In this document: positions 3,222 through 61,369 of the stretch, in pieces
Numbering within the stretch: position 1 is the first letter of the stretch
Layout: the number at the start of each line of letters is the position of its first letter
Program-made: the position numbers and the translations under genes
Notes under the pieces: generated by a model
The model's input: the letters and a program-made list of their open reading frames with translations, nothing else
What the model was told of the DNA's origin: nothing
Database searches by the model: none
Assembly: GCA_964106915.2 (NCBI GenBank)
Contig: OZ066920.1
DNA from: Podarcis gaigeae
Taxonomy: Eukaryota
DNA: 64,000 bases
Reading direction: 5' to 3' (one strand)

Positions 3222-3932
3222 CGTCTTCGTCATCGTTTAGTCGTTTAGTCATGTCCGACTTTTCATGACCCCATGGACCAGAGCACGCCAGGCACTCCTG
3301 TCTTCCACTGCCTCCTGCAGTTTAGTCAAACTCATGCTGGTAGCTTCGAGGACACTATCCAACCATCTCGTCCTCTGTTGTCCCCTTCTCCTTGTGCTCT
3401 CCATCTTTCCCAACATCAGGGTCTTTTCCAGAGAGTCTTCTCTTCTCATGAGGTGGCCAAAGTATTGGAGCCTCAGCTTCAGGATCTGTCCTTCCAGGGA
3501 GCACTCAGGGCTGATTTCCTTAAGAATGGATACGTTTGATCTTCTTGCAGTCCATGGGACTCTCAAGAGTCTCCTCCAGCACCATAATTCAAAAGCATCA
3601 ATTCTTCGACGATCAGCCTTCTTTATGGTCCAGCTCTCACTTCCATACATCACTACTGGGAAAACCATAGCTTTTACTATATGGACCTTTGTTGGCAAGG
3701 TGATGTCTTTGCTTTTTAAGATGCTGTCTAGGCTTGTCATTGCTTTTCTCCCAAGAAGCAAGCAGTGGCGTAGCGTGGGGGGTGCAGGGGGGGCCGGCCG
3801 CACCGGGTACAACATCTGGGGGTTAGGGGGCGCAAATCCATGGGTTAGGAGGTGCAAATTACTTGCCTTGCCCCGGGTGCTGACAACCCACGCTACGCCA
3901 CTGGAAGCAAGGGTCTTTTAATTTCATGGCTG
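3222..3932 (-). mobile_element. Bov-B (RTE clade) LINE, 5'-truncated 3' fragment, interrupted by a hAT MITE
   Basis: Minus-strand peptide LLLGRKAMTSLDSILKSKDITLPTKVHIVKAMVFPVVMYGSESWTIKKADRRRIDAFELWCWRRLLRVPWTARRSN...WRALVHGVMKSRT is the Bov-B ORF C-terminus; the LINE resumes at 3912 after the MITE. Confidence 0.95.
3763..3903. mobile_element. hAT-family MITE nested in Bov-B
   Basis: Perfect 17-bp TIR CAGTGGCGTAGCGTGGG / CCCACGCTACGCCACTG; perfect 8-bp TSD GAAGCAAG at 3755-3762 and 3904-3911. Confidence 0.93.
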
Positions 3933-5638
3933 CTCTCAAAAACCATGAAATTAGCCGTAAAAACAACTATTTGAAACATTCAGAATAAAATTGAAATCAA
4001 TGATAAGCTAACAACCATATTAAAACACCTGTCAACATTCTACATATCTGGTTGAGTCGTGCCTAACAAAATCATGGAAACGGTGTGCAGGCGATAATAA
4101 CGAAAAGGAGTTTTTCAGCGGGGCGATCTTTGTGTGGCTGTTAACAGTGTTTCCTTACAACACTGAAAGTGACTTTAAAAGGCAGGGAGAGAATAAGAAG
4201 TGAGGAATTGTAGAGGATTTTGATGTCAAGATGCCTTCCCCATGCTTTTTGTCACTTGTGGCTAGAGAAGACAGGATTCCTGGGTGTGTGTGTTGGGGTG
4301 TGTGTGCCGTTCCTGCCAGAGGATACAATCAACCTGATTCTGTAGCTTCTGCTTTCCATTTTATGGTCTCCTGCTGGGTTGGCAACGGCAGCTTGTGTAT
4401 GAGCTGGAGGGAGGAGGGGAAAGGGAGCTTTGGAGAGGTCCGCAATGGAACCGGGGGGGGGGGGGGATTTTTTTCCTTGCCTCATCCTTTGCATGTTTTC
4501 TTCTCTCTTCTCACAAGGCTCCCTCGCACATCCATACGCTTTCCCTCCGGACATAATCATAATCATACCACAATAGGAGAAGGCTTCCTCATTATTTCGC
4601 TCTGTCCTACCCCGCTCTTCTAACTCTCACCGTTTGTGAAGAAAATGAAATGAAACTGTGCGACAAGGGACAGCCAGTCTCCCAACAGGTGGTGATCTAA
4701 TCATTTTCATCGTCACATTTCTCCTCCTCCATCTGCTCAGGAGAGCTTTGGTCGTGCTGGCCCAGTTCTCAAGCTTTCTTTCTTCTGAACTCTTTCTCTT
4801 TCCCACAGTTCCCTTGGGGATTCGCTTTTTTGGAGCTCACTATCGCTTTGGTTGGGTTGCTGCCTATGCATCAAAGGAGGCTTTTTGTGTTTTATTCCTA
4901 AAGGGTAAAGCATTTTATTAAATCTTGCAGCCAGATCTACCTTGTGGGCTCACAGCATTCTTGGGCAGGTTGTCCTTCACCTGCCTGATGCTGAGTTCAA
5001 GCCCCAATAAGAACATAAGGGGGGCTTTCTTCCCAGTGCCCAGGAAGCTTCTTCCTGGCTTATGGAGGGAGGCGCAATGCTCACATGTGCGACTGGGCCA
5101 TACATGCTTTGGGGCTAGTTATTGGGGGGGGGGGTTTCATAGTTATGGCCAATGTGTGGAGAAGTGGAGATTTGTGGATGGGAATGTGGGAGGAGGGAAT
5201 TTTAATTCAGGCACATCCAATTCCACCCCTCATGGCAGTATACGTCCTGGGGTAAAATCCTTTAAAAAGCTCAGCAACGTCAAACCTTAAAAAAGTTGAA
5301 CAACTTTGGTCAGCCCTCACACGTTCACTTTGGGCACCCCTGTTTTAATTGCTCTGCTCTGGAATGGCTGAGTATTCATGCTGCTGCTGTGTTTAGTGAA
5401 CGAGCATCAAGACTCAGCATCCCTGTAACACCCCCCTCTCCCCTGCACAAGCTGTCTCGCACCCTTAGCAGTGAGAAACCGGTTGCCATGACTACCGCCT
5501 ATAAAAAGGTCATCTTCAGGAAATTCCTTCTGTAGGCAGAGTAGCACCAGGATGAAACTTCCTGTAGGAAGGTTAAAGAACGGTCTACATTATACAGAAT
5601 GATAAATATCTTGGTGGCTTCTTGTAATCTGCCTCATA

Positions 5639-5641
<3 letters not shown>

Positions 5642-5670
<29 letters not shown>
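5642..5670. repeat. (TA)n microsatellite, left flank of PLE insertion
   Basis: Pure AT run abutting the element. Confidence 0.95.
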
Positions 5671-5674
<4 letters not shown>

Positions 5675-6230
5675 GGTTTTGGTGTCCTCGGGTGTCTTCC
5701 CGTGTAAAAGTTGGGGTGTCTAGGCGACGTTTCGACGAGGTCTCACTCGTCATCTTCAGGCTGGTGCTTTCGGCTTCTTGTTACTGGAACAGAGCGGGAT
5801 CTCAATGTTTGAGTTCCTATAAATACTGTAGAGGGGGTGTGGTGTCTAGCCTCCAATGTTCTGGGCAGAGAGGAAGTTCCCAGGCTAGTGTGCCTTTTCT
5901 TCTTTTGTTCCTTAATTACTTGAGAGATACCTTGAGTGATTTCTTGAGTGATATCCTGAGTACCACTTAGGTGGGTCATTAGGTGTGGATTAGTTGCTAA
6001 AGTCTTTGTGTCTTGACCTCTTGAACTTTGTGAAGAGTTTTCCTGAGAAGATGGCTGTATTGCACTTAGTTGTGCTTTGGCTTGGCTTCGTGTATAGGGG
6101 CGAGCTGTGGTTTTGTGGCTTGTGTCAGCCAGATCTGTGTAGGGATTGCAGGGGGGTGCAGCATCCGGAGGTGCCACCATGGATTGGCTACTGGATGGTG
6201 TCAGTAATTCATCTGTGGAGAGGGTCTGGG
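5670..6230 (-). mobile_element. Penelope-like element 3' region / pseudo-LTR, copy 1
   Basis: 5670-6152 is the reverse complement of 6231-6713; carries a hammerhead motif and a stop-free frame ending PEDDE*; inserted in (TA)n. Confidence 0.8.
5723..5762 (-). ncRNA. Minimal type-I hammerhead ribozyme motif (copy 1)
   Basis: Reverse complement reads AGC-CUGAAGA-U-GACGAG-UGAGAC-CUCGUC-GAAAC-GUC-GCC. Confidence 0.75.
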
Positions 6231-6740
6231 CCTGCAATCCCTACACAGATCTGGCTGACACAAGCCACAAAACCACAGCTCGCCCCTATACACGAAGCCA
6301 AGCCAAAGCACAACTAAGTGCAATACAGCCATCTTCTCAGGAAAACTCTTCACAAAGTTCAAGAGGTCAAGACACAAAGACTTTAGCAACTAATCCACAC
6401 CTAATGACCCACCTAAGTGGTACTCAGGATATCACTCAAGAAATCACTCAAGGTATCTCTCAAGTAATTAAGGAACAAAAGAAGAAAAGGCACACTAGCC
6501 TGGGAACTTCCTCTCTGCCCAGAACATTGGAGGCTAGACACCACACCCCCTCTACAGTATTTATAGGAACTCAAACATTGAGATCCCGCTCTGTTCCAGT
6601 AACAAGAAGCCGAAAGCACCAGCCTGAAGATGACGAGTGAGACCTCGTCGAAACGTCGCCTAGACACCCCAACTTTTACACGGGAAGACACCCGAGGACA
6701 CCAAAACCTGCATTCCTGTACCCGTGAAAATCTACGAAAG

Positions 6741-6743
<3 letters not shown>
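6231..6743 (+). mobile_element. Penelope-like element pseudo-LTR, copy 2 (inverted partner, longer 3' end)
   Basis: Same sequence in opposite orientation, extends about 30 nt further (…cccgtgaaaatctacgaaagcaa) then (TA)n. Confidence 0.8.
6621..6660 (+). ncRNA. Minimal type-I hammerhead ribozyme motif (copy 2)
   Basis: CUGAAGA 6624-6630; 6-bp stem II GACGAG/CUCGUC 6632-6637/6644-6649; GAAAC 6650-6654; cleavage triplet GUC 6655-6657; stem I only 2 bp. Confidence 0.75.
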
Positions 6744-6789
<46 letters not shown>

Positions 6790-6795
6790 ATATAT
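6744..6795. repeat. (TA)n/(TATG)n microsatellite, right flank of PLE insertion
   Basis: AT run followed by TATG units. Confidence 0.95.
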
Positions 6796-7073
6796 GCCTG
6801 TGTTTTACTGCCACATCAGTAGGAGAGCCAGAGTCTCTATGCATCTGGGCCAGCTGTTTTTTGGTAGTCTTCAGTGGAAAGCCCAGAAGCGCGTGTGCTA
6901 AGTGCCATACTTAGTATGACAATCATGATGACAGCTTGAAAGGAGGAGTGAAAGAGTTGATGCAGTTCCCTTCAGCTTTCCCTCAAGTGTCTTTACCCAG
7001 ATCCATCTCCCAACATATTAGTGGAATGACCATTAGCTGCTAAACCTTAGGGTAATGCAAACATAAGCATATA

Positions 7074-7324
7074 CAGTCATACCTTGGTTCTCAAATGCCC
7101 TGGAACTCGTACGTTTTGGGTCCCGAACGATCGAAAACCGGAAGTGAGTGCTCCAGCTTTTGAATGTTCTTTTGGAAGCTGAATGTCCGACAGGGCTTCC
7201 GCAGCTTCTGATTGGTTGCAGGAGCTTCCTGTAGCCAATCAGAAGCCGTGCTTTGGGAGTTGAATATTTTGGAAGTCGAAAGGACTTCTGGAACGGATTC
7301 CATTTGACTTCCGGGGTATGACTG
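7074..7324. mobile_element. TA-flanked Tc1/mariner-pogo MITE, family B copy 1
   Basis: TIR CAGTCATACC / GGTATGACTG with TA flanks; internal ctgattgg..ccaatcag palindrome; related to 20224-20473. Confidence 0.85.
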
Positions 7325-7344
7325 TACCTGTGCATACCTTGCCT

Positions 7345-8040
7345 TTGGGATGTGCAAATACGTCAGTTTTGCATTCTCTTGGTTTCTTATTCTTCAAACC
7401 TTAAGTTCAGACCTCCACTTTCCACATCAGTTTTTGATGGTTTTTTTTATTGAAAAAAACATCATCATGGAAGCTCATGTGCATTTGGGGGAAAATTTCT
7501 CCTAATATACCCATGTCTCTATAAGCCATTTTTGCCTAATACATGAATTTTTCTGAAAAGCAGTTTTCCTGATACAATTCATATTTGTATGCTGTTTTCA
7601 CTAGTACAGTGGTACCTCAGGTTAAGTACTTAATTCGTTCCGGAGGTCCGTTCTTAACCTGAAACTGTTCTTAACCTGAAGCACCACTTTAGCTAATGGG
7701 GCCTGCTGCTGCCGCCGCGCCGCCAGAGCCCGATTTCTGTTCTTATCCTGAAACAAAGTTCTTAACCTGAAGTACTATTTCTGGGTTAGCGGAGTCTGTA
7801 ACCTGAAACGTATGTAACCTGACGCGTATGTAACTCGAGGTACCATTGTATGTGCATTTATACACAGACTTTATTTTATGCATTTTGTGTGTGCACATTG
7901 CTTGGCAGGAGAACGGCAAAATTAATAAACGTGCACATTTTGAAAAATGGCTACGCTTCCTTTTGTATGTTATTTCAGAAAGTGCAAAGGATGTAAGTTT
8001 GCCTTTAAATGCAAATTGAATCGAATCTTTCCCCCATCCC
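7345..8040. mobile_element. Older non-autonomous DNA element (GGGATG…CATCCC ends), interrupted by MITE A
   Basis: Similar to 39241-39602 (reverse) and 58021-58545: shared ttccacatcagttt, ttctcctaatata, gagaactgc motifs. Confidence 0.65.
7607..7848. mobile_element. MITE family A copy 2
   Basis: TIR CAGTGGTACCTC / GAGGTACCATTG, TA flanks; one extra tgtaacctga subrepeat. Confidence 0.9.
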
Positions 8041-13489: not shown

Positions 13490-13762
13490 TCCACAGCCGA
13501 AAGCATGCCAGTATGGGTAGATAAATAGGTACTGCTGCAGCAGGAAAGTAAACGGCGTTTCCGTGAGCTCTGGCACTCGTCGCGGTGTCCTGTTGTTCCA
13601 GAAGTGGTTTAGTCATGCTGGCCACACGACTTGGAAAAGCTGTCTATGGACAACGCAGGCTCCCTCTGCCTGAAAGCAGAGATGAGTGCCACATCCCATA
13701 GTTGAATTCGACTGGACTTAACCACCCAGTGGTCTTTTACTTTTACTTTTACCTTTACCTTA
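13490..13762 (+). mobile_element. Sauria (Squam1) SINE, 5'-truncated older copy
   Basis: gtagataaataggtac…gtaaacggcgtttccgtg…gtcatgctggccaca…(ACCTTT)-like tail; reverse of the copies at 26991, 57624 and 59803. Confidence 0.85.
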
Positions 13763-15863: not shown

Positions 15864-16592
15864 CTGCATATAGCAACAATACTGGCAGGTATTAAAGTTG
15901 CTGTGAAAACGGCAGCAATAATAACTACTTTGGTAACCAGCAATCAAGTATTTGAAACTGTAGTAGTAATTACTTGCACTAAAAGGTACATAAGCTTAAC
16001 AGCATTTTCAGGGTCAGTGTGAATGACTGATCATTCTTCTCCTTTTTGGAGCTTTAGCACCACACTATACTCAAAACATCATCTTTGGCAGGCTGAGAAG
16101 TATGTGGCAGTTATTTTGTGAGTTCGTGACATGATGGGCCATATAATCAGAGGCTTTTGACTGATGATTCCAAGTGTCTTATGTCTGAGGGTGAGACCTG
16201 CACTTGCAGTCTTTACTGTCTAGACATAGATATTGACAAACAAGCCTCGCTGACATAAGATGCTAACATGCTTAGCCAGAGGCATTTCAATGATCTTGCC
16301 CTTTTATGTTCTCTTTCCAGGCTTTTAGTCAACTGTGAAATGTACCTCTTAAGATCTATCACATTAATTCCACAAACAAAACTTTGTGTTTTGAAACTTA
16401 GAAACTTTACTATTGATTGATTGGTTTTTTTATCAGTTGTAGGCTAAACTGTGCAGGTGGAGGGTTTTGTTCTCCAGAGGCTGCGTGAAGAGGTTGCATA
16501 TTTTTCTAAAGCATTCAGAGATGTTGCAATCAGATGTAAAAAAAATAAAAGGCCTTGCTTTATCGTGATGAGAACAGTCTGGTTGTGATGTA

Positions 16593-16807
16593 CAGTGATA
16601 CCTCGGGTTAAGTTCTTAATTCGTTCCGGAGGTCCGTTCTTAACCTGAAACTGTTCTTAACCTGAAGCACCACTTTAGCTAATGGGGCCTCCCTCTGCTG
16701 CTGCGCCGCCAGAGCACGATTTCTGTTCTCATCCTGAAGCAAAGTTCTTAACCTGAAGTAGTATTTCTGGGTTAGCGGAGTAGTGTATGTAGCATGAGGT
16801 ACCACTG
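16593..16807. mobile_element. MITE family A copy 3
   Basis: TIR CAGTGATACCTC / GAGGTACCACTG, TA flanks. Confidence 0.9.
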
Positions 16808-16912
16808 TAACATTAAACCAGTGTTTGGTGTTCCATGCATGAAACTGCTCTGCCTCTTCCTCTCCTCGGGTGTAGCTACAAAGAGATCAGAAGCATTTGC
16901 TTCCATTTCCAA

Positions 16913-17046: not shown

Positions 17047-18467
17047 CTAATCCTAAGGAAGATGAATCCTGTGCATGACGGTTTGGCCTGTGATGTTGCA
17101 TTGATACAATTGCATTTCTACACAATCGTATCTGTTTGACCAGGTGCAGTGCAGCATCTTAGGAAGACCCATGCTGATGCATTTGATAGCATCCTAAATA
17201 ATGCTAGTATACTTGGACATTATTATTATTTTTACTATGTTGGGTGTCATATTAAATTTTGAGATCAGTTAATACATAGCACGGTGACACTGAAGGCAGT
17301 TTCACTTGCCAAAATCTTAGGAAGGCAGCAGGTGATGTATAGCAGTGAAATATATTTTTTCCTCTCTGCTGCCTCTCAGTGGTTTAGTTCTGAAGGAATA
17401 ATTATCCAGTATTGCATGAATAATATCCAGTTGCAGTTCAGAATTCCACAGGAGGGCAGCCTTATCCCAAGCTATGTTACAGTGGGTGAGCAAATCATGA
17501 CATTTTAAAATAAAACCCACACAGATACTTTTTTATTTTTTAAAAAAGCTATATAAAAATAAACTAGGAATACTTTAGAAAAAAACAACCAAACAAAACA
17601 AACCCTAAAGCAAAAAGTGCAACTATGCATTGGTTAGTATCCATTGCCTTCCAAACTAGGCTTATATTATGTGCCACAGAAAAATCAATAATATGCTGGC
17701 CTGCGTATTCTAACATCCCTGACAAACATTTGCTGTATTTTACAACACAAGATGGGCTTGAAATTCCCTCTCATTTGTTTTGCATGAAAATGCTTTGATG
17801 GACACTGAATACATTTTATTTGGATGGAATTGTATTTTAAAGGTGCAAAGAAAATAATGAATTCTATTGGTATCCTACTCTTCCTCCAAAATGTCCAGGG
17901 AGGTATATTACCTTTAAGACCTCCCTGGGAGGCTGGCTAGACCGAGAAGACATTGTTAAAGGAAACACAGCAAGCTTTGTGGCTGAATGAGGACTTGCAG
18001 TCGTGTCTCTCATGCTCAAGTGCAAGTCTAGTCACTACACCACACAAGTACAAGCAGATATGTGCAAGATTGACACCTCATGCAGTCATAGTTCTGCAAT
18101 TCAGTCATAGTTCTTCCTCTCTTCTTGACGTACTAGTTGTTGTAGCAATTTGATACGGCCTAAGGAATAAGGTAGGTGGGCATCAATTTGATCGAGAGTC
18201 GTTCTGCATTTCTTTGTTTGTGCTTCTTAGGGAAGTGGACTGAGGGTACAGAATCTTGATGAGATGTGAACCTATAGCTGAATCACTCTAAGCTTGGGCT
18301 GCAGCCCTGTCCTAAGCTGTATTTGAATAAATCACATTAAAAGCAAAGGGATTTACTGTTTGCTGAATAGTGGATGTGTTTCAGCTCAATACATTAATAC
18401 ATTCTCTGCTAAGGTTTTCATCTAAACTTTTCTACAACCCATTTCAGAGTTTGCCTAAGCTATAGAT

Positions 18468-18603
18468 CAGGCATCCCCAAACTCCGACCTCCAGATGTTT
18501 TGGGACTACAACTCCCATCATCCCTGACTACTGGTCCTGTTAGCTAGGGGTGATGGGAGTTATAGTCACAAAACATCTGGAGGGCCGAGTTTGGGGGTGC
18601 CTG
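18468..18603. mobile_element. hAT MITE (short, internally palindromic)
   Basis: TIR CAGGCATCCCCAAACTC / GAGTTTGGGGGTGCCTG; 8-bp TSD CTATAGAT/ATATAGAT. Confidence 0.88.
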
Positions 18604-20223
18604 ATATAGATGTTTGCTAGCCCCAGCTTGTAGGTAAGGTTGTCACTGCCTCCAACAGTGGCTGAAGCAGGAGTTACACCATTCTGACACCAACATGCGA
18701 AGATGGAACAGGAGTGAGAAAGGGTAGTGGGAAGGTTAGACACCAAAACCTTACAATTTTGAAGTGCTCAGTCACACACCTTGTGTCAATATTTAGGGAC
18801 AATTCACTATTCCTCCTTATCTTGAGGCTTTTCAGTTTTACATTTAGTGTAACTTCATGGTGGCAGGGTCAACAAACAAGCAGGGTGGGGCTTATCACTG
18901 AGCAGTCTCATAGGTCTTCATGTAAGTACCTGAGTTACCTATTATTTCTCCAGAAAGAAAGAAAAACATGTTTGCAATTCTGTCTTCCCTGTTCACGATT
19001 AGAATCAAGGACTTTGTACAGCACACAACAGCATAGTTCATTCAAATGCAATATATGCATTTATTTGGGACTCTTATCCGAGCCTGAATGAAAAATACTA
19101 TCTTTCTCAAGAAGGCAATATGTATATATTTTTTATCTAAAGAAAGGCAAAGAGTCACAGAGATACTGAATGTTGACTATAGCCAACAATTTATAGCTTC
19201 TCTCCCTCTTTATTTTGTGGTGTAGGGCAATGCTTTTCCACTCTGATTTAATTAACTTCATTTAATGGCCTGGTCATAGAGATAATAAGCATAGCAGCAG
19301 CATAGCGGCTGCACTATCAAATGCCTGGCATTGACTAATATTTGGCAACAATATGGTCATTCTACAATGGAAGCACATACAAGAAAAGAGCAGCCTATTT
19401 ATTAATTTGCCAAGTTCCCCCCTCCTTTGGGAAGGCTACTGTGCATTTCTTCGAGACTGATTGAAACAGAAAGCAAGAGTATATGGTGGTGAATACTGTT
19501 TTTAGTGTGTTGGAGTCATTTAGCAAAAAGTGTTCCTTCAGGAAAACAGAATCAAGATGCTAATGTTATACCTCATTTATTGCCAAGCATATTCAGTGAC
19601 ATTTCATAAGGTACATCTGTCAGCCAGAGATATAAATGAATGAGGTGAACTGTGCAATTTACCCTGAGGAACTTCCATTAGAGCCCCCTGAAGTATAATA
19701 TTTATGAGGTCAGAGTCAATTAATCAGATAGCTGTATTTGCTTTTCAGCTTGCGACGGTCTCTCACCAAACTGTTGCACTGAGAGGGAAAATGCTTTTCT
19801 TTTCAATAATAATAATAAACAAAATGGGGAAAAAATGTAACATTCAGGTTGTTTAGATAAGGGCTGCATTTTTAACGACAACAAAATCAATTACTGTATG
19901 TTAACTACAGAAAAACACAATGTAAATATAAAGGAGCATGCCATGGTGTCCGTCGGAGCCTGGTGGCTCAGCTGAGGGCTTAGGCCCCTGGATGTGCTGC
20001 TTCCCCCAGAAATATGGGTGTGGTCATGGAACTGAGGTAAAAGTGAGGGAACAAAGGCCTTGTTTAGAAGGGAGCTGGAGACTATAGGTAAAGAAAATGT
20101 CTCCACTTCCATTGGAGGTGAGACTGCTTTGCTTTGGGGCTTCTAAAGACTGCAGTTCTGTATCCACATTCCCAGAGTACTGTATGTCTGTCAGTGGGTC
20201 TTAATTCTGCCTAGAAAGGACTA

Positions 20224-20473
20224 CAGTAGTTCCTCAGAAGTCGAACAGAATCCATTTCAGAAGTCCATTCAACTTCCAAAACATTCAGAAACTAAGGTGC
20301 AGCTTCCAATTGGCTGCTGGAAGCTCCTGCAGCCAATCTGAAGCTGTGGAAGTCATGTTGGACGTTCAGGTTCCAAAGAATGTTTGCAAACCTCAACACT
20401 TACTTCTGGGTTTGTGGCATTTGGGAGCCAAAACGTTCGACTGGCAAGGCGTTTGGCTTCCAAGGTATGACTG
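20224..20473. mobile_element. MITE family B copy 2 (opposite orientation to 7074-7324)
   Basis: TA-CAGTAGTTCCT…AAGGTATGACTG-TA; body is a reverse match to copy 1. Confidence 0.8.
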
Positions 20474-21031
20474 TATTGCTTTCCCTTATTTCCACAATTC
20501 ATTGGTTTATAGCACTGTCGTCCACCTGTCAAAATTCCTCATCCAGTGGCCGCTCAGACCCTGCCCTTTGATCGCCAACCCTACTAGGAAGCATGTAGTG
20601 TGAGGCTAGCGCAGAAGGCTTAGATTTTGACTGGAGTTAGAGGCCCTGGGGAATGGGGTGTTTAATCTGTGCCTTTTCCGTGAAAGAAATGGCTCCTTGA
20701 GACCTTGCTAAGGACTCCCTTCAGGTGCCTGTCTCCCTGCCACTCTGCTGTGGGGCTAATAGAAGCTTATGGTGGGCATGGTTTTGATTAGTAAAGCAGC
20801 ACATGGGGAGAGGGTTAAACCTTCCCTCTTCCACCAGAACTACCCCAATGAAAGTCATGGCTCATGGCTGATCATGGACCTCCCACCTCATGCTTGTTTT
20901 GCCCTCGAATGAGGAAACTAACCTTGGGACAGAAAATGTCACAGGACTCTGAAAAGTGGCCAGTGAAAGAGGATTTTTGACACAGTGGAACATTTATTTA
21001 CATGTAGTAAACTGTTGTCCTACAAACCCAT

Positions 21032-26331: not shown

Positions 26332-26990
26332 TACCCATAGTACCCAAAGCTGCTTGAGTTATTTTGGCATCTGAAGCAGAAGATTCCACAAGTGCCTCAC
26401 CCCTTCCCTGGAAGTAAATACATACTATTAAATAATAATGTTGGTTCATTAATTTGCTGCTCTTTCATGACACTCGGCAATGGTCTGTCTCTACCAAAAT
26501 AGCAGGAAAAGCCTTTTTTGTGGTCATGAGATGACTCTTGGCAGCATGCAACCCTTTTTAGAACATCTCTCTCCTAAAGTTTGAATGACCGAGCAAGATT
26601 ACATAAGATAAGCTGGTCCAACAAGATGTACCTGGTTGCAAGTTGTTAAATGATTTTATATGCTAACAGCAGAATTTTAAACATGGCCCAGTAGCATTTT
26701 GGCAGCCGGTGCACCATGGGATAAAAGCCCCTTATTTCCTTCTTTCAGTTCCCCCCATGCTTCCAGTGGGGGAGTGCTCCAAATAGCTGTTTATTGATTC
26801 AAATTGGAAAAATGAACCTCGCTGCAGTCAATGCAATGGTGGTTTAATGGCTCAGAGCAGAACTACTGAAGCTCAGGGGTCTCTTAATGAGCAAAAGATT
26901 TGCAGCAATTTCCTCATTTTCTGAGCATGATGTGAACAGCAACTGCAGCAGCAAAGACAACAGTCTTTTAACATTATAAGAAAGTCAGTA

Positions 26991-27342
26991 AAGGTAGAGG
27001 GACCCCTGACCATTAGGTCCAGTCGTGACTGACTCCGGGGTTGTGGCACTCATTTCACTTTATTGGCCGAGGGAGCCAGCGTACAACTTCTGGGTCATGT
27101 GGCCAGCATGACTAAGGCACTTCTGGCGATCCAGAGCAGCACACGGAAATGCCGTTTACCTTCCCGCCGGAGCGGTACCTATTTATCTACTTGCACTTTG
27201 ACGTGCTTTAGAACGTGCTTTAGGTTGGCAGGAGCAGGGACCGAGCAACGGGAGCTCACCCCGTCGCGGGGATTCGAACCGCCAACCTTCTGATCGGCAG
27301 GTCCTCGGCTCTGTGGTTTAACCCACAGCGCCACCCGCGTCC
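26991..27342 (-). mobile_element. Sauria (Squam1) SINE, full length
   Basis: Minus-strand tRNA head (A box TGGCGCTGTGG, B box GGTTCGAATCC), ACCT(T/C)T tail, perfect 13-bp TSD AAGAAAGTCAGTA 26978-26990 / 27343-27355. Confidence 0.95.
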
Positions 27343-40513: not shown

Positions 40514-40793
40514 TGTTGTTGTTGTTGTTTAGTCGTTAGTCATGTCCGACTCCTCATGACCCCATGGGCCAGAGCACACCAGGCACTCCTGTCTTCCACT
40601 GCCTCTTGCAGTTTGGTCAAACTCATGCTGGTAGCTTCGAGAACGCTATCCAACCATCTTGTCCTCTGTCGTCCCCTTCTCCTTGTGCCCTCAATCTTTT
40701 CCAACATCAGGGTCTTTTCCAGGGAGTCTTCTCTTCTCATGAGGTGGCCAAAGTATTGGAGTCTCAGCTTCAGGATCTGTCCTTCCAGTGAGC
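40514..40793 (-). mobile_element. Bov-B LINE, short 5'-truncated copy
   Basis: MRREDSLEKTLMLEKIEGTRRRGRQRTRWLD…; (CAA)n tail; 12-bp TSD GCTCAGTCCCTT 40502-40513 / 40794-40805. Confidence 0.95.
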
Positions 40794-41489
40794 GCTCAGT
40801 CCCTTAATAACCTCTAAATTCAGTTTGGTGTTTAAGAATGATGAATTATGTTCTAAAGTTAACCTCCCATATGTGAAAGGTTTGTATGTGTGTGTGTGTT
40901 TTAAAGTGTAGGATTTTCTTGTTACAGCAGAAGAAGCTGCATTTCCAGGATATATCCATATGGACCAAACAATTGTATTTCCCCACAACTGTTCACCAGT
41001 TTTCCTTTGGAATACTTTAAGAATCAGTAACAAGGAGACAAAACATCAGCACTGTAAAATCTGGTTGATTTATAAAAAAGTGAAAATATTGGTCATTTTG
41101 GATCAGTTAACAAAAGAGTACACCTGAAAATTTCAGTTGCTCTCTGTAAAGCTTACAGTGGTCTGGTTGGTAGGCCACATTAGATCATTTCTATCACACC
41201 GTTCCTCTCAAAGGACATCTAAACACATTAAGAACAAGGGCCAGCAGGGGTTCAAATTTGGCCCATGAGGCTGCTTGCTCCAAACCATGGCCACTTCCCC
41301 CTCCAAATGTCACCCATTTATTTATATAACATAATAGCTATACCACTTGATTGATCTAAGTGGCTTATAACAGGAACAACCAGGACTCCCAATGGTTTCT
41401 TGGCAAGTAGGACTCCCTGTCCATACTAGCCTTTACATTGTGCCTTCAGATGTTCTAAACATCATCAATCTTAAACTTCATTAATAAAC

Positions 41490-50452: not shown

Positions 50453-51892
50453 AGAGCTGTGGCTCATTGGTGGTGTGCATGCAAAAGGTCCTAGGTTGAA
50501 TTCCTGGCATCTCCTACAACCCCGGGGGGGGGGGGGGGGCTATGGCTTCAAACCCTGGAAAATTGCTGCCAGTAAGTGTAGACACTCTGGTGACATGTGT
50601 ACAGTAGTACCTCGGGTTAAGAACTTAATTTGTTCTGGAGGTCCGTTCTTAACCTGAAACTGTTCTTAACCTGAGACACCACTTTAGCTAATGGGGCCTC
50701 CTGTTGCTGCCACGCCACGGCTGCTGCACAATTTCTGTTCTCATCCTGAAGCAAAGTTCTTAACCCGAGGTACTATTTCTGGGTTAGCGGAGTCTGTAAC
50801 CTGAAGTGTCTGTAACCCGAGGTACCACTGTACATACTTTTTCCCTGGTAGCACCCGTGTTATGAAATGCACTCACTGCAGAGGACCCATCTGCACTGGC
50901 GTTCTGTAGCCTTTTGAAGATGCACCTGTTTACACAGGCATTCCCTTGATCTCTCAACCTGAGCCTCCTGTTTTAATTGCGGCGCTGCTTTAATGGGATT
51001 GTTTTAATTATGGATGTTTCTGCTTCACCATTTGATCTTAGCCATGATGGCTATTAGGCCCAGCCTCCACAATCATACTTCTGAAGACCATTGGCCAGAA
51101 ATTGCAGGAGGGACTCAACTTTTGCTTGCAGGTGCCATAGGTACCATCTCATTCCGAAGATTGTGGGTGCCCGCAACGGAGGGCTACAACTTTGCCCACT
51201 GACTTTGTGGGGGCCCAGCCCCCACAAATATATTATTGTGGGTGCCAAAGCACCCATGCCCCCCTGGAGTTGGCTCCAGTGGCAGGTGACATGGGCCAGG
51301 AGTCTGCTTTGCTGGATGAACAGCAGCCTGAAGGGGGAGTGACTCCATCTGCAGCTGATCAGAGGAGAAAGCACTGAAGAGAACCAGCTGGCTCTGGCCT
51401 TCTCAAGCAGAGCTCTCAGCAGCAGTCAGATGCTGAAAACAACACCTGTGGTTCCTGGCCCAACCTTCCTGCTCTCTATCTGGACCATTGGCTTTGGGTT
51501 CATCTGGGTTCCCTCTGGACTGTCTGACTCTATGTGGATTCTGCTCTCAGGCAAGTGTTTCTCAGAGACTCCTAGCCCCTGCTTGCTCAGCAATGGAACT
51601 TGGATGGAGCTATGACAGCAGGTTTCCCTCAAGCATCTGGGTGGCTGCACTAGATAGGCCATTGGCTTGATCCAGCAAATTCTTCTTATGTCCTTACGAT
51701 GGGATTGTTTTATTGTATGTTTTGATTATGGTTCTTTATATGTTTGTGTAACTGGTTTTTATGCTCTGCAGGCAGCCTAGAAACCTATTTTGACATCAAG
51801 CAATTTATAAAGCAGACACCACCACCACCAATTAATTAGACAATACTGAGCTAGGTGGACCAATGAGCTAACCCGATATAAAGCAGCTTCCT
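50453..51892 (+). mobile_element. L2-tailed tRNA SINE split by about 1.25 kb of nested insertions
   Basis: Head ends …tgccagtaagtgTAGACA (50584); tail resumes TAGACAatactgagctaggtggaccaatg (51837). Confidence 0.6.
50602..50830. mobile_element. MITE family A copy 4
   Basis: TIR CAGTAGTACCTCGGGTTA / TAACCCGAGGTACCACTG, TA flanks. Confidence 0.9.
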
Positions 51893-52404: not shown

Positions 52405-52546
52405 TAGTGATGGCTCAGTTGGTAGAGCATGGCACTTAATCTCAAGGTTGTGGGTTCAAGCCCCACTTTGGGCAAAAGATTCTTGCATTGCAGGGTGTTG
52501 GACTAGAATAGATGATCCCTGTAGTCCCTTCCAACTCTACAATTCC
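52405..52546 (+). mobile_element. tRNA-Lys-like SINE with CR1-type tail
   Basis: TGGCTCAGTTGGTAGAGCA…CTTAATCTCAAGGTTGTGGGTTCAAGCCCCAC, then CR1 3' end cccttccaactctacaattc. Confidence 0.8.
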
Positions 52547-57623: not shown

Positions 57624-58010
57624 AAAAGGTAAAGGTAAAGGGACCCCTGACTAATAGGTCCAGTCGTGACCGACTCTGGGGTTGCGGCACTCATCTCGCT
57701 TTATTGGCCGAGGGAGCTGGCGTACAGCTTCCGGGTCATGTGGCCAGCATGACAAAGCCACTTCTGGTGAACCAGAGCACCGCACAGAAACACTGTTTAC
57801 CTTCCCGCCGTAGCGGTACCTATTTATCAACTTGCACTTTGACATTCTTTTGAACTGCTAGGTTGGCAGGAGCTGGGACCGAGCAACAGGAGCTCACCCC
57901 ATCGTGGGTATTCGAACCACCGACCTTCTGATAGGCAAGTCCTAGGCTCTGTGGTTTAACCCACAGCGCCAAGTCCTAGGCTCTGTGGTTTAACCCACAG
58001 CGCCACCCAT
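57624..58010 (-). mobile_element. Sauria (Squam1) SINE with 34-bp 5' tandem duplication
   Basis: (ACCTTT)n tail; 12-bp TSD GAATTGGAGATA 57612-57623 / 58011-58022. Confidence 0.95.
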
Positions 58011-58545: not shown

Positions 58546-59802
58546 TGTGTGTAGAGACCACCACTGTGGCTGTGGAGCACCTGAAATTCGGATGCTGACA
58601 AAACCCACATGCCCTAAAATAGTGTCCCAGTTAGAAGTAAATCTGAATCTCTACCCTGCCCTGCCAGCCTTTCCTCGCTTATTTGGCTTGGTGAATGGAG
58701 CCACTGGCAGCACGAGTAAAGTGGTAGCAGGGAGGTCTTAGAAGAGGTTCCAGGCTCCCTTTCTCCCTGGCACCTTCTAAAATACTGCCACAGCAGTGTT
58801 CCAAACAGCAGGGATCTTGGGAACTCTAACATGAACTGGTGCCAGGAGTCCCGGAACATGCGGTTTCCAGGGCAACTGATGTCCAGAAAAGGGACTTGGT
58901 TGTCTTGGAAAAATAACTGCTCCTAGAGTCCCCTGGCACAAAATAGCCATGTGGAACAGTATTAATGGCATGAGAGTGAACACAGAAGAAATTATTATCT
59001 GGTCAAAGCTTTATGCTCTTGTCCTTTATTTTAAAAAATCAGGAACCTTCCCCTCCCTAACCCTATCAGCATATAAATACACATCCTTTCACAATGCATT
59101 ATACACAGTTTTAATATACGAAACAACCCCCCAGATTCCACCTTCCCATCTCTGCTACTAAATACCGTATATGGAAAAGTGTAACAAGGAATCATAGGAG
59201 CTCACCTCCTAGGGGCTGAGGGGGGCTTTGGGCTCCCCCATAAAATATTTGAGGGGGATTGCCCCCCCCAAAGTTGAAGGGCATTGCCATTCAAATAGTG
59301 GGTGCGCATCAAGTCGTGTGATTGATTATGCGGGGCAGGGCCTACCTGGACCCCCCATATTTTATTCAAATTGGAACCCCTGCAAGGAATATCAGTTTCC
59401 AAATGTATTGTTGCACACCTTGGAATCTCCAAGCAGTGCAAGATTCCAAGGGCTTGTGTTTCCTTTGGAATAAGGAACAGCGGAGACTATGGTGTTTTTA
59501 TGGTTTATTTACACAGATATACAACCTGAGCCTATGATGGAGGGGTTCACAGCATTAACACCCCAAGAGGGCCTTGCTTCCCCCATAGCTGCAGCTTTGG
59601 ATTAAAACAGAAATCAAGCATCGCTCTGCCTATTTTGGTTCCCAGTTTGCTACTTTTCTTTTAGCTCACATCACTCCAAACTCTCTGCTCTCAGTTCTGG
59701 CTTTGTCCTTCCAAGTATCAGAGGGTCAGGGGAGGGACCCCACTTATTTGCCACCTAGCACAGATCCACTTCCTTTGTTCCCCTTAATGTTCTATCACCT
59801 TA

Positions 59803-60152
59803 AAGGTAAAGGTAAAGGTACCCCTGCCGGTACGGGCCAGTCTTGACAGACTCTGGGGTTGTGCGCCCATCTCACTTAAGAGGCCAGGGGCCAGCGCTGT
59901 CCGGAGACACTTCCGGGTCACGTGGCCAGCGTGACATCGCTGCTCTGGCGAGCCAGAGCCACACACGGAAACGCCGTTTACCTTCCCGCTGGTAAGCGGT
60001 CCCTATTTATCTACTTGCACCCGGAGGTGCTTTCGAACTGCTAGGTTGGCAGGCACTGGGACCGAGCAACGGGAGCGCACCCCGCCGTGGGGATTCGAAC
60101 CACCGACCTTTCGATCGGCAAGTCCTAGGCGCTGAGGCTTTAACCCACAGCG
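59803..60152 (-). mobile_element. Sauria (Squam1) SINE, different and CpG-rich subfamily
   Basis: (ACCTTT)3 tail, B box GGTTCGAATCC, TSD TCACCTTA 59795-59802 / 60153-60160. Confidence 0.93.
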
Positions 60153-60625: not shown

Positions 60626-60856
60626 TCTAAAACCCAGTTTGCCTTGAATTAAGAAGAAAAGCCAAGTGGCTCATTAGTCCAGCATTCTTTTCTCACAGTG
60701 GCCAACCGGATGCTTGTGGGAAACCTGTGAGAACAGGAGCAATCTCCTTTCTTGTGCTTTCCAGCCGCTGGTATTCAGAAGCACTGATGCCTCCAGATGC
60801 TGAGGTATTATAACTGTTGGCTTAACAGTCATGTTTTCTGTGCATGATAATGTGTA

Positions 60857-61369
60857 CTGTGGTACCTTGGTTCTCAAATGCCTTGGTACTCAAACAACTT
60901 GGAACTCAAACACTGAAAACCGGGAAGTAAGTGTTCCAGTTTGCGAACATTTTTCGAAAGTAGAATGTGCTCTGTTTTGAGTGTTACACTTCAAATTTGA
61001 GTGCCACACTTCCGTTTTGAGTGTTATGCTGAGGTCTGTCTGTTTTTGCTATTTATTTTGCGTTTTTGTTTTTGCAGCTCTTTTTTGTTTTGTTTTTGTG
61101 ACTGTGTGGAACTCAGTTCAGCTACTGATTGATTGATTGATTGTGTGACTGCAGTACATTGATTATTGCTTTCATTTTATGGATCAATGGTCTCGTTAGA
61201 TAGTAAAATCCATGCTAAATTGCTGTTTTAGGGGTTGTTTTTAAAAGTCTGGAATGGATTAATCCATTCTGCATTACTTTCTAAGGGAAAGCGTGCCTTG
61301 GTTTTGGAATGCTTTGGTTTTGGAATGGACTTCCGGAATGGATTAAGTTTGAGAACCAAGGTACCACTG
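60857..61369. mobile_element. TA-flanked Tc1/mariner-pogo non-autonomous element (513 bp)
   Basis: 22-bp TIR C(T)GTGGTACCTTGGTTCTCAAA / TTTGAGAACCAAGGTACCACTG with TA flanks; internal 21-bp tandem repeat tttgagtg…. Confidence 0.88.

Follow-up and report, generated by a model that had tools for sequence, protein, structure and literature searches.

Paired minimal hammerhead motifs on opposite strands of what is very probably a head-to-head insertion of two truncated Poseidon/Penelope-clade PLE ends

Introduction

Two copies of a minimal hammerhead ribozyme motif lie on opposite strands of a 64,000-nt stretch of the Podarcis gaigeae genome (contig OZ066920.1), hereafter the window. The locus raises the question of why a ribozyme should be accompanied by its own exact complement, and whether this layout serves a purpose or simply records how a retroelement was inserted. 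Much of the context is already known: earlier papers describe opposite-strand minimal hammerhead pairs, inverted pseudo-LTRs (pLTRs), tails, and siRNAs derived from the inverted repeats of Penelope. Minimal hammerheads paired on opposite strands, about 100-700 bp apart, and a truncated PLE with a second minimal hammerhead on the opposite strand at its 5′ end have been reported (PMC4209133; here and below, papers are cited by accession from the portions of their text available). Inverted 5′-truncated PLE copies with a one-sided tail of 30-40 bp are standard (PMC8557442, PMC3846280, PMC8969392). The origin of the inverted pLTR/tail layout is listed as an open question (PMC8557442), and surveying copies of this kind across the genome could show how inverted PLE ends arise. 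The present locus offers a clean test case, as its ends match biochemically mapped reverse-transcription start sites.

A minimal hammerhead motif and its exact mirror

A minimal type-I hammerhead was found at 6621-6660 on the plus strand, with its exact mirror at 5762-5723 on the minus strand, both at the positions given by the original prediction and both on an inverted repeat without a single mismatch. By base numbering, the plus-strand copy comprises a CUGAAGA core (6624-6630), an unpaired U between the core and stem II (6631), a stem II of six Watson-Crick pairs closed by a 6-nt loop (6632-6637/6644-6649), GAAA (6650-6653), an ACGU palindrome in place of stem III (6653-6656), the cleavage base C6657, after which the cut is predicted, and a 2-bp stem I (6622-6623/6658-6659). 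In the mirror copy (5723-5762, minus strand), CUGA runs from 5759, and the cut is predicted after 5726. The core, 6-bp stem II, palindrome, and 2-bp stem I had been correctly described beforehand, whereas the unpaired U6631 had been omitted. That base belongs to the published definition of the minimal PLE hammerhead, which includes an unpaired base between positions 9 and 10.1 (PMC4209133). Here U6631 follows A9, and a G10.1-C11.1 pair (G6632-C6649) opens the 6-bp stem II; the core follows the pattern CUGANGA ... GAAA ... NUH of minimal type-I PLE hammerheads, and the palindrome at 6653-6656 stands for stem III. The motif thus fits the consensus of metazoan PLE minimal hammerheads, including the core, G10.1-C11.1, a long stem II, and palindromic 15.2-16.2, with a 2-bp stem I at the short extreme, which is found in 6 of 56 aligned examples (PMC4209133).

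Our own hammerhead descriptor matched twice in the window, at the mirror pair, and when both strands of 300 dinucleotide-shuffled versions of the window were scanned, it gave no match with a stem II of at least 6 bp and four with a stem II of at least 4 bp. As the descriptor was composed after the motif had been seen, and the mirror copies count as one event rather than two independent matches, this result shows only loosely that the motif is non-random. Rfam covariance models found nothing: the hammerhead families had no match at the gathering score in the window, and the 37 matches obtained in the region 5500-6900 with E of 10 or less included no hammerhead. The miRNA matches that Rfam gave in this region were below the gathering score and can be put down to the hairpin and to the AT tracts. 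The motif therefore belongs to no Rfam family. In isolation it was not unusually stable (z -0.10 to -1.36 across four fragments). In the minimum-energy monomer fold, a small hairpin between 6655-6657 and 6663-6665 hides the cleavage triplet and may act as an off state of the ribozyme. A distal extension of stem I (6612-6616/6673-6677) was tried and rejected; with it, active folds became less stable, not more.

Two truncated ends of one retroelement family

The ribozymes are placed toward the outer ends of a 483-bp inverted repeat, whose arms (5670-6152 and 6231-6713) are complementary at 483 of 483 positions and enclose a 78-nt spacer. The hammerhead cores lie 865 nt apart, a little over the published range (PMC4209133). 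The whole unit runs from 5670 to about 6744 (~1.07 kb) within a (TA)n tract, with a left (AT)n target tract at 5642-5671, the last AT of which (5670-5671) is common to the element end, and a right (AT)n target tract at 6744-6777. No target-site duplication can be defined in (TA)n.

Protein comparisons identified the arms. A minus-strand frame (6240..5743, P0001) matched two proteins, P0004 and P0005, among 746 candidates. With tblastn, residues 206-368 of P0004 aligned to 6234..5746 with 162 of 163 identical, spacer included, and residues 234-368 aligned to 6233..6637 with 135 of 135 identical; the alignments to both copies indicate that both arms are 5′-truncated ORF ends. P0001 reads through the spacer at 99% identity to P0004, whereas P0002 diverges there, so the unpaired 78-nt spacer (6153-6230, minus strand) is PLE coding sequence of the minus-strand copy and not foreign DNA. 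Accordingly, the longer 5′-truncated copy (5670-6230, minus strand) measures 561 nt, spacer included in element orientation, and holds the ORF end, the ribozyme, and the first 82-84 nt of the next ORF. The shorter 5′-truncated copy (6231-6744, plus strand) carries in addition a one-sided tail of 30-35 nt (6714-6744, plus strand), whose limits are blurred by shared AT; the element end falls between 6743 and 6746. The two copies meet at a head-to-head junction with an apparent 2-4-nt microhomology (6231-6234), where a single position, 6231, departs from the P0004 reading, the junction nucleotides being deduced from residues Q206-T207 of P0004. The junction palindrome is only 4 nt (6229-6232), with no long one. 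A putative TATA-like octamer, readable both ways, lies at 6558-6565, 59 nt before the ribozyme core, with its mirror at 5818-5825, and resembles the bidirectional motif of rotifer pLTRs (PMC3846280).

Between them, the arms code for the C-terminal 135-162 residues of an RT/GIY-YIG protein and for 27-38 residues of its N-terminus; the window copy thus holds just the two extremities of the ORF, and the RT and endonuclease (EN) are absent. A blastn search for further copies of the element in the window returned only the two arms, the other 13 rows being 12-37 nt long with E of 0.11 or worse. The CpG observed/expected ratio of 0.41 in 5670-6742, against 0.26 for the window, is consistent with a young insertion.

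The parent family has a single ORF with an RT followed by a C-terminal GIY-YIG, as represented by P0004 and P0005. P0004 has the GIY-YIG domain near its end, followed by a long tail, and P0005, a Podarcis muralis gene model, has RVT_1 (E 4e-16), DKG, YVDD, and a GIY-YIG match; the GIY-YIG Pfam scores, 20.5 and 19.8 bits, are sub-threshold against a cut-off of 22.6. The further PLE traits, namely a pLTR with a hammerhead, 5′ truncation, an inverted copy, and a tail, are all present, and the original identification of the motifs as minimal type-I hammerheads of PLE pseudo-LTRs is borne out. A cysteine-rich Zn-finger linker between RT and EN is present in Neptune and Nematis (PMC8557442). P0005 has one cysteine in this interval, as does P0054, which points to Penelope/Poseidon rather than Neptune. 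P0054 is an Anolis protein whose N-terminus is the same as that of PAc, the characterized element of Anolis carolinensis (PMC11167929), and it is 47% identical to P0005.

The N-terminal end of the ORF gave a similar picture. An AUG at 6630 opens 38 codons, of which 26 are identical to the start of P0126, a protein with a Poseidon-type N-terminus that aligns with P0054. Against 121 relatives, the window N-terminal peptide had no significant match (best E 0.52), and a larger protein search returned two matches, P0126 and P0125, the latter dropped as a relative because it is a tandem-repeat protein. None of three window peptides matched Pfam. From these sequence comparisons, the element would fit within Poseidon/Penelope. 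We also observed that the family ORF has a long low-complexity extension past the endonuclease, which spans the entire pLTR (5746-6234, minus strand) and has no Pfam match.

Two other classes of element were considered and set aside. A MITE or TIR DNA transposon does not agree with arms that are retroelement coding sequence, nor with the extra tail at one end. Non-LTR retrozymes (PMC7229834; bioRxiv 10.64898/2026.07.22.740005) are likewise non-coding, PLE-related, and equipped with type-I hammerheads, but they form head-to-tail tandems in which two same-strand ribozymes release a circle, and by the published criterion they have two or more hammerhead-bearing units in succession on one strand (bioRxiv 10.64898/2026.07.22.740005). 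At the present locus, each strand bears a single hammerhead and the window contains no further copy; placed on opposite strands, the two could not excise a monomer.

How the two ends came to lie head-to-head

We consider it highly probable that the locus is a recent, non-autonomous head-to-head insertion of two 5′-truncated Poseidon/Penelope-clade 3′ ends into a squamate genome, at a (TA)n microsatellite. On this reading, the hammerheads are the pLTR ribozymes that the element's family normally carries, and their placement on opposite strands reflects only the opposite directions in which the two ends were copied. Read from the target 3′ ends, both arms are antisense to the element, as cDNA would be. 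Beyond the cut site, each also retains 56 nt of 3′ sequence (as far as 6713), to which one of them adds the tail, and this indicates that the RNA templates were uncleaved, as in PAc (PMC11167929).

The closest biochemically studied relative is PAc. As in PAc, the AUG lies at the start of stem II within a minimal hammerhead with an extra U, and the distance from the A of the AUG to the cut is 28 nt here against 29 nt in PAc, by our own count from the printed RNA (PMC11167929). The insertion end at aligned L-R-x-x-I codons, the AT-rich target, and the tail are also shared (PMC11167929). Compared by eye, all six stem II pairs are kept, through three double changes, one single change, and two unchanged pairs, a comparison of two families rather than of covariation within one. 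The two elements differ in that PAc belongs to another family (39% identical across 181 EN-region residues) and has a stem I of 3 bp rather than 2 (PMC11167929), and in that the ORF here spans the whole pLTR and stops inside the ribozyme, in a copy that is truncated and head-to-head.

The PAc GIY-YIG endonuclease cuts both target strands, both of which are extended, and prefers AT-rich DNA; uncleaved RNA is the substrate, and two internal start sites lie downstream of the ribozyme (PMC11167929). Reverse transcription starts 111-118 nt into the PAc ORF, with a second site one tail-length away (PMC11167929). Counted from the AUG, the outer end falls at +82 to +84 in the left copy and at +114 to +117 in the right one, and the PAc start site aligns with +108 to +115 here, overlapping the observed right end. 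The position of the second PAc start site appears in figures only, which bears on how firmly the tail boundary can be matched to it. The tail itself, at 30-35 nt, agrees with the published 30-40 (PMC8557442). On this basis, each 3′-OH of the broken target would have primed one cDNA, at about +83 and about +115 from the AUG, and the 2-4-nt microhomology at 6231-6234 would then have served to join the two cDNAs, whether their ends met directly or the left cDNA folded back. We lean modestly toward this sequence of priming from both target ends followed by microhomology joining. We give roughly even chances to the more general proposal that two-ended priming by a dimeric PLE RT-endonuclease explains inverted pLTRs, one-sided tails, and opposite-strand ribozyme pairs alike. 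Two-ended priming is not spelled out in the available portions of PMC11167929, and no title among the literature matches listed concerns two-ended Penelope priming, most subscription papers lying outside the scope of that search.

The main alternative concerns only the route, as it would leave the layout a by-product all the same: fold-back self-priming, starting from one cDNA or from an antisense template, after which the endonuclease would have trimmed one of the tails. The identity of the arms at 483 of 483 positions would follow from it automatically, and is explained by fold-back copying at least as well as by two RNA templates. The left cDNA 3′ end could pair with 6149-6152 on its own strand, closing a 78-nt loop, and self-priming with EN-mediated resolution has been proposed in print (PMC3846280, PMC8557442). 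However, a purely fold-back origin starting at the left end would have yielded a copy of (AT)n in place of the tail, so the tail would need either a second, right-end-primed cDNA or trimming exactly at the tail boundary. The short junction palindrome is also unlike the rotifer copies behind that model. We therefore regard fold-back as a rather doubtful substitute for two-ended priming.

Under either route, the locus closely resembles the inverted-pLTR Penelope copies already described (PMC8557442, PMC3846280, PMC2377424), with which it shares head-to-head 5′-truncated copies, a one-sided tail of ~31 nt, a pLTR containing the first ORF codons, a two-way TATA-like motif, and a microsatellite target. 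It differs from them in consisting of two ends only, without an internal ORF copy, and in having a short microhomology rather than a long palindrome.

Stop and start codons within the ribozyme

The ribozyme's A9, extra U, and G10.1 together make up the start codon of the Poseidon ORF (6630-6632, plus strand), and the stop codon of the upstream RT/EN ORF (6638-6640, plus strand) lies in loop II, with P0004 ending at the same residue. This stop/start overlap region (6630-6640, plus strand) is mirrored at 5743-5753 on the minus strand. In tandem copies, the overlap suggests possible translational coupling. A start codon within the ribozyme has already been reported for PAc (PMC11167929), and among the literature matches listed, no title concerned an ORF stop overlapping a PLE ribozyme. 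The presence of both codons inside the ribozyme bears on the question of what PLE hammerheads do.

P0126 opens with the same 10 residues as the ORF at 6630 and continues as a Poseidon N-terminus. Within this single pairwise comparison, identity was 10 of 10 over the ribozyme-encoded residues but fell to 8 of 20 over those that follow directly (Fisher p 0.0016) and to 16 of 28 over the whole remainder (p 0.016). One reading of the overlap is that the ribozyme region serves mainly as a translation switch, in full-length tandem elements and not in the window copy: terminating ribosomes could unfold the ribozyme and re-initiate 8 nt back, and cleavage would sever the AUG from its ORF. The placement of both codons (6638-6640 and 6630-6632) and the excess of conserved residues in P0126 are in keeping with such a switch, as is a report that viral hammerheads promote cap-independent initiation (PMC13725137). 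Nevertheless, the conservation comes from one pairwise comparison and would be explained equally by ribozyme structure alone, and the PAc RNA template has a 126-nt UTR ahead of its AUG, so the overlap is not universal (PMC11167929). We accordingly think the switch improbable as the main role of the region, and an insertion by-product carrying normal pLTR ribozymes remains the preferred account of the locus.

Folding of the ribozyme in the inverted layout

Folding calculations showed that the inverted layout can bury the ribozyme. In read-through RNA spanning both arms, the stem II probability was about 1e-21 on either strand, and the ribozyme was wholly paired to its mirror within a 483-bp hairpin, in accordance with the ribozyme-antisense pairing originally foreseen. 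The antisense copy is always transcribed first, and in all six nascent prefixes folded, every ribozyme base was paired to the mirror. The claim that any transcript would be blocked in this way proved too broad: it holds for transcripts that start outside about 5760 or the mirror of that position. When 14 start points were folded, three abolished stem II and one (5755) left the core partly bound, but transcripts from the other 10 (5763-6605) contained no antisense and had a stem II probability of 0.88-0.98. The exception that had been allowed, for transcripts starting inside an arm or the spacer, is thus confirmed by computation and may be the default. Drosophila Penelope has an internal pLTR promoter (PMC2377424), and this, together with the two-way TATA-like octamer, makes it plausible by analogy that transcripts are initiated within the arms.

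Even an unblocked ribozyme would probably have low intrinsic activity. Stem I had a pairing probability of 0.0004-0.018 in antisense-free transcripts, and the computed active dimer, at -18.1 kcal/mol, was less favourable than the best co-fold (-31.2) or two monomers (-24.2), in an energy model that ignores tertiary contacts of the core; both results make low activity probable. Low dimer activity has been described for minimal hammerheads (PMC4209133), and PAc cleavage depends on protein (PMC11167929). An RNA begun inside an arm would therefore free a lone ribozyme that would probably cleave poorly, needing a trans partner or the element protein. It had also been argued that the antisense would block cleavage of a cis dimer. 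The physics of that argument is sound, but there is one ribozyme per strand, and a cis dimer is impossible regardless. The block on the ribozyme is an automatic by-product of any perfect inverted repeat. If the unit is transcribed, its likeliest biological output on these models would be double-stranded RNA.

These results bear on the proposal that the locus is a selected self-silencing device, in which the layout either keeps the ribozyme off or makes hairpin RNA that restrains the family in trans. The complete, co-transcriptional burial of the ribozyme in read-through RNA would suit such a device. Rearranged Penelope copies in transgenic Drosophila have siRNAs that match their inverted regions (PMC3681739), and these siRNA-producing Penelope copies (PMC3681739, PMC3136932) resemble our unit in having a long inverted repeat from which double-stranded RNA could form, although here the host is a vertebrate. 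Against this, PMC3681739 concludes that such siRNAs silence Penelope inefficiently, and ribozyme-dead PAc RNA inserts normally in vitro (PMC11167929), so blocking cleavage would cost or gain little. The window copy has no RT or EN, 10 of the 14 start points evade the block, and we recognised no host gene from which read-through could come. In the host-gene search with Pfam, 295 of 303 stop-free frames of at least 60 aa gave two sub-threshold matches, a weak test for short exons; both, SACK1 (E 0.007) and LAT (E 3.5e-5, over a simple repeat), were under the cut-off and were dismissed. To call the layout a self-silencing configuration is thus to overreach, as a copy without RT or endonuclease has nothing to silence in cis and the templates of both arms were uncleaved RNA, and for the layout as a whole we found no evidence of selection and regard it as a described by-product of PLE insertion. 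A hairpin kept by selection as a reptile siRNA source would be a real host-defence finding; nothing here points there, and we hold a selected device to be very unlikely.

An assembly or library artefact, in which a fold-back chimera produced the perfect palindrome, would account for the 100% arm identity beside flanking microsatellites, and such structures trouble assemblers (PMC8557442), but the asymmetry is biologically exact, with a one-sided tail of published length ending at an RT start site and both ends in (AT)n with a flank that is not mirrored, which makes an artefact barely credible.

Other repeats in the window

Several further repeats were observed in the window. One dispersed family (26984-27336, 57625-58008, and 59802-60145, with an inverted member at 13517-13697) is a candidate Sauria SINE. 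A short dispersed repeat with internally repeated motifs and a MITE-like look occurs at 941-1160, 7604-7850, 16590-16809, and 50599-50832, and a second short dispersed repeat has inverted copies at 7071-7326 and 20222-20476 that are 71-78% alike, with a partial copy at 60855-60954. Two 264-nt copies (3245-3508 and 40536-40799), 94% identical and within open frames of 222-226 aa that have no Pfam match, are probably a LINE fragment. A 68-bp inverted repeat at 18463-18608 is 87% complementary around a 10-nt loop. Finally, a partial tRNA match at 52410-52467 (Rfam score 30 against a cut-off of 29 bits) is probably the head of a tRNA-derived SINE.
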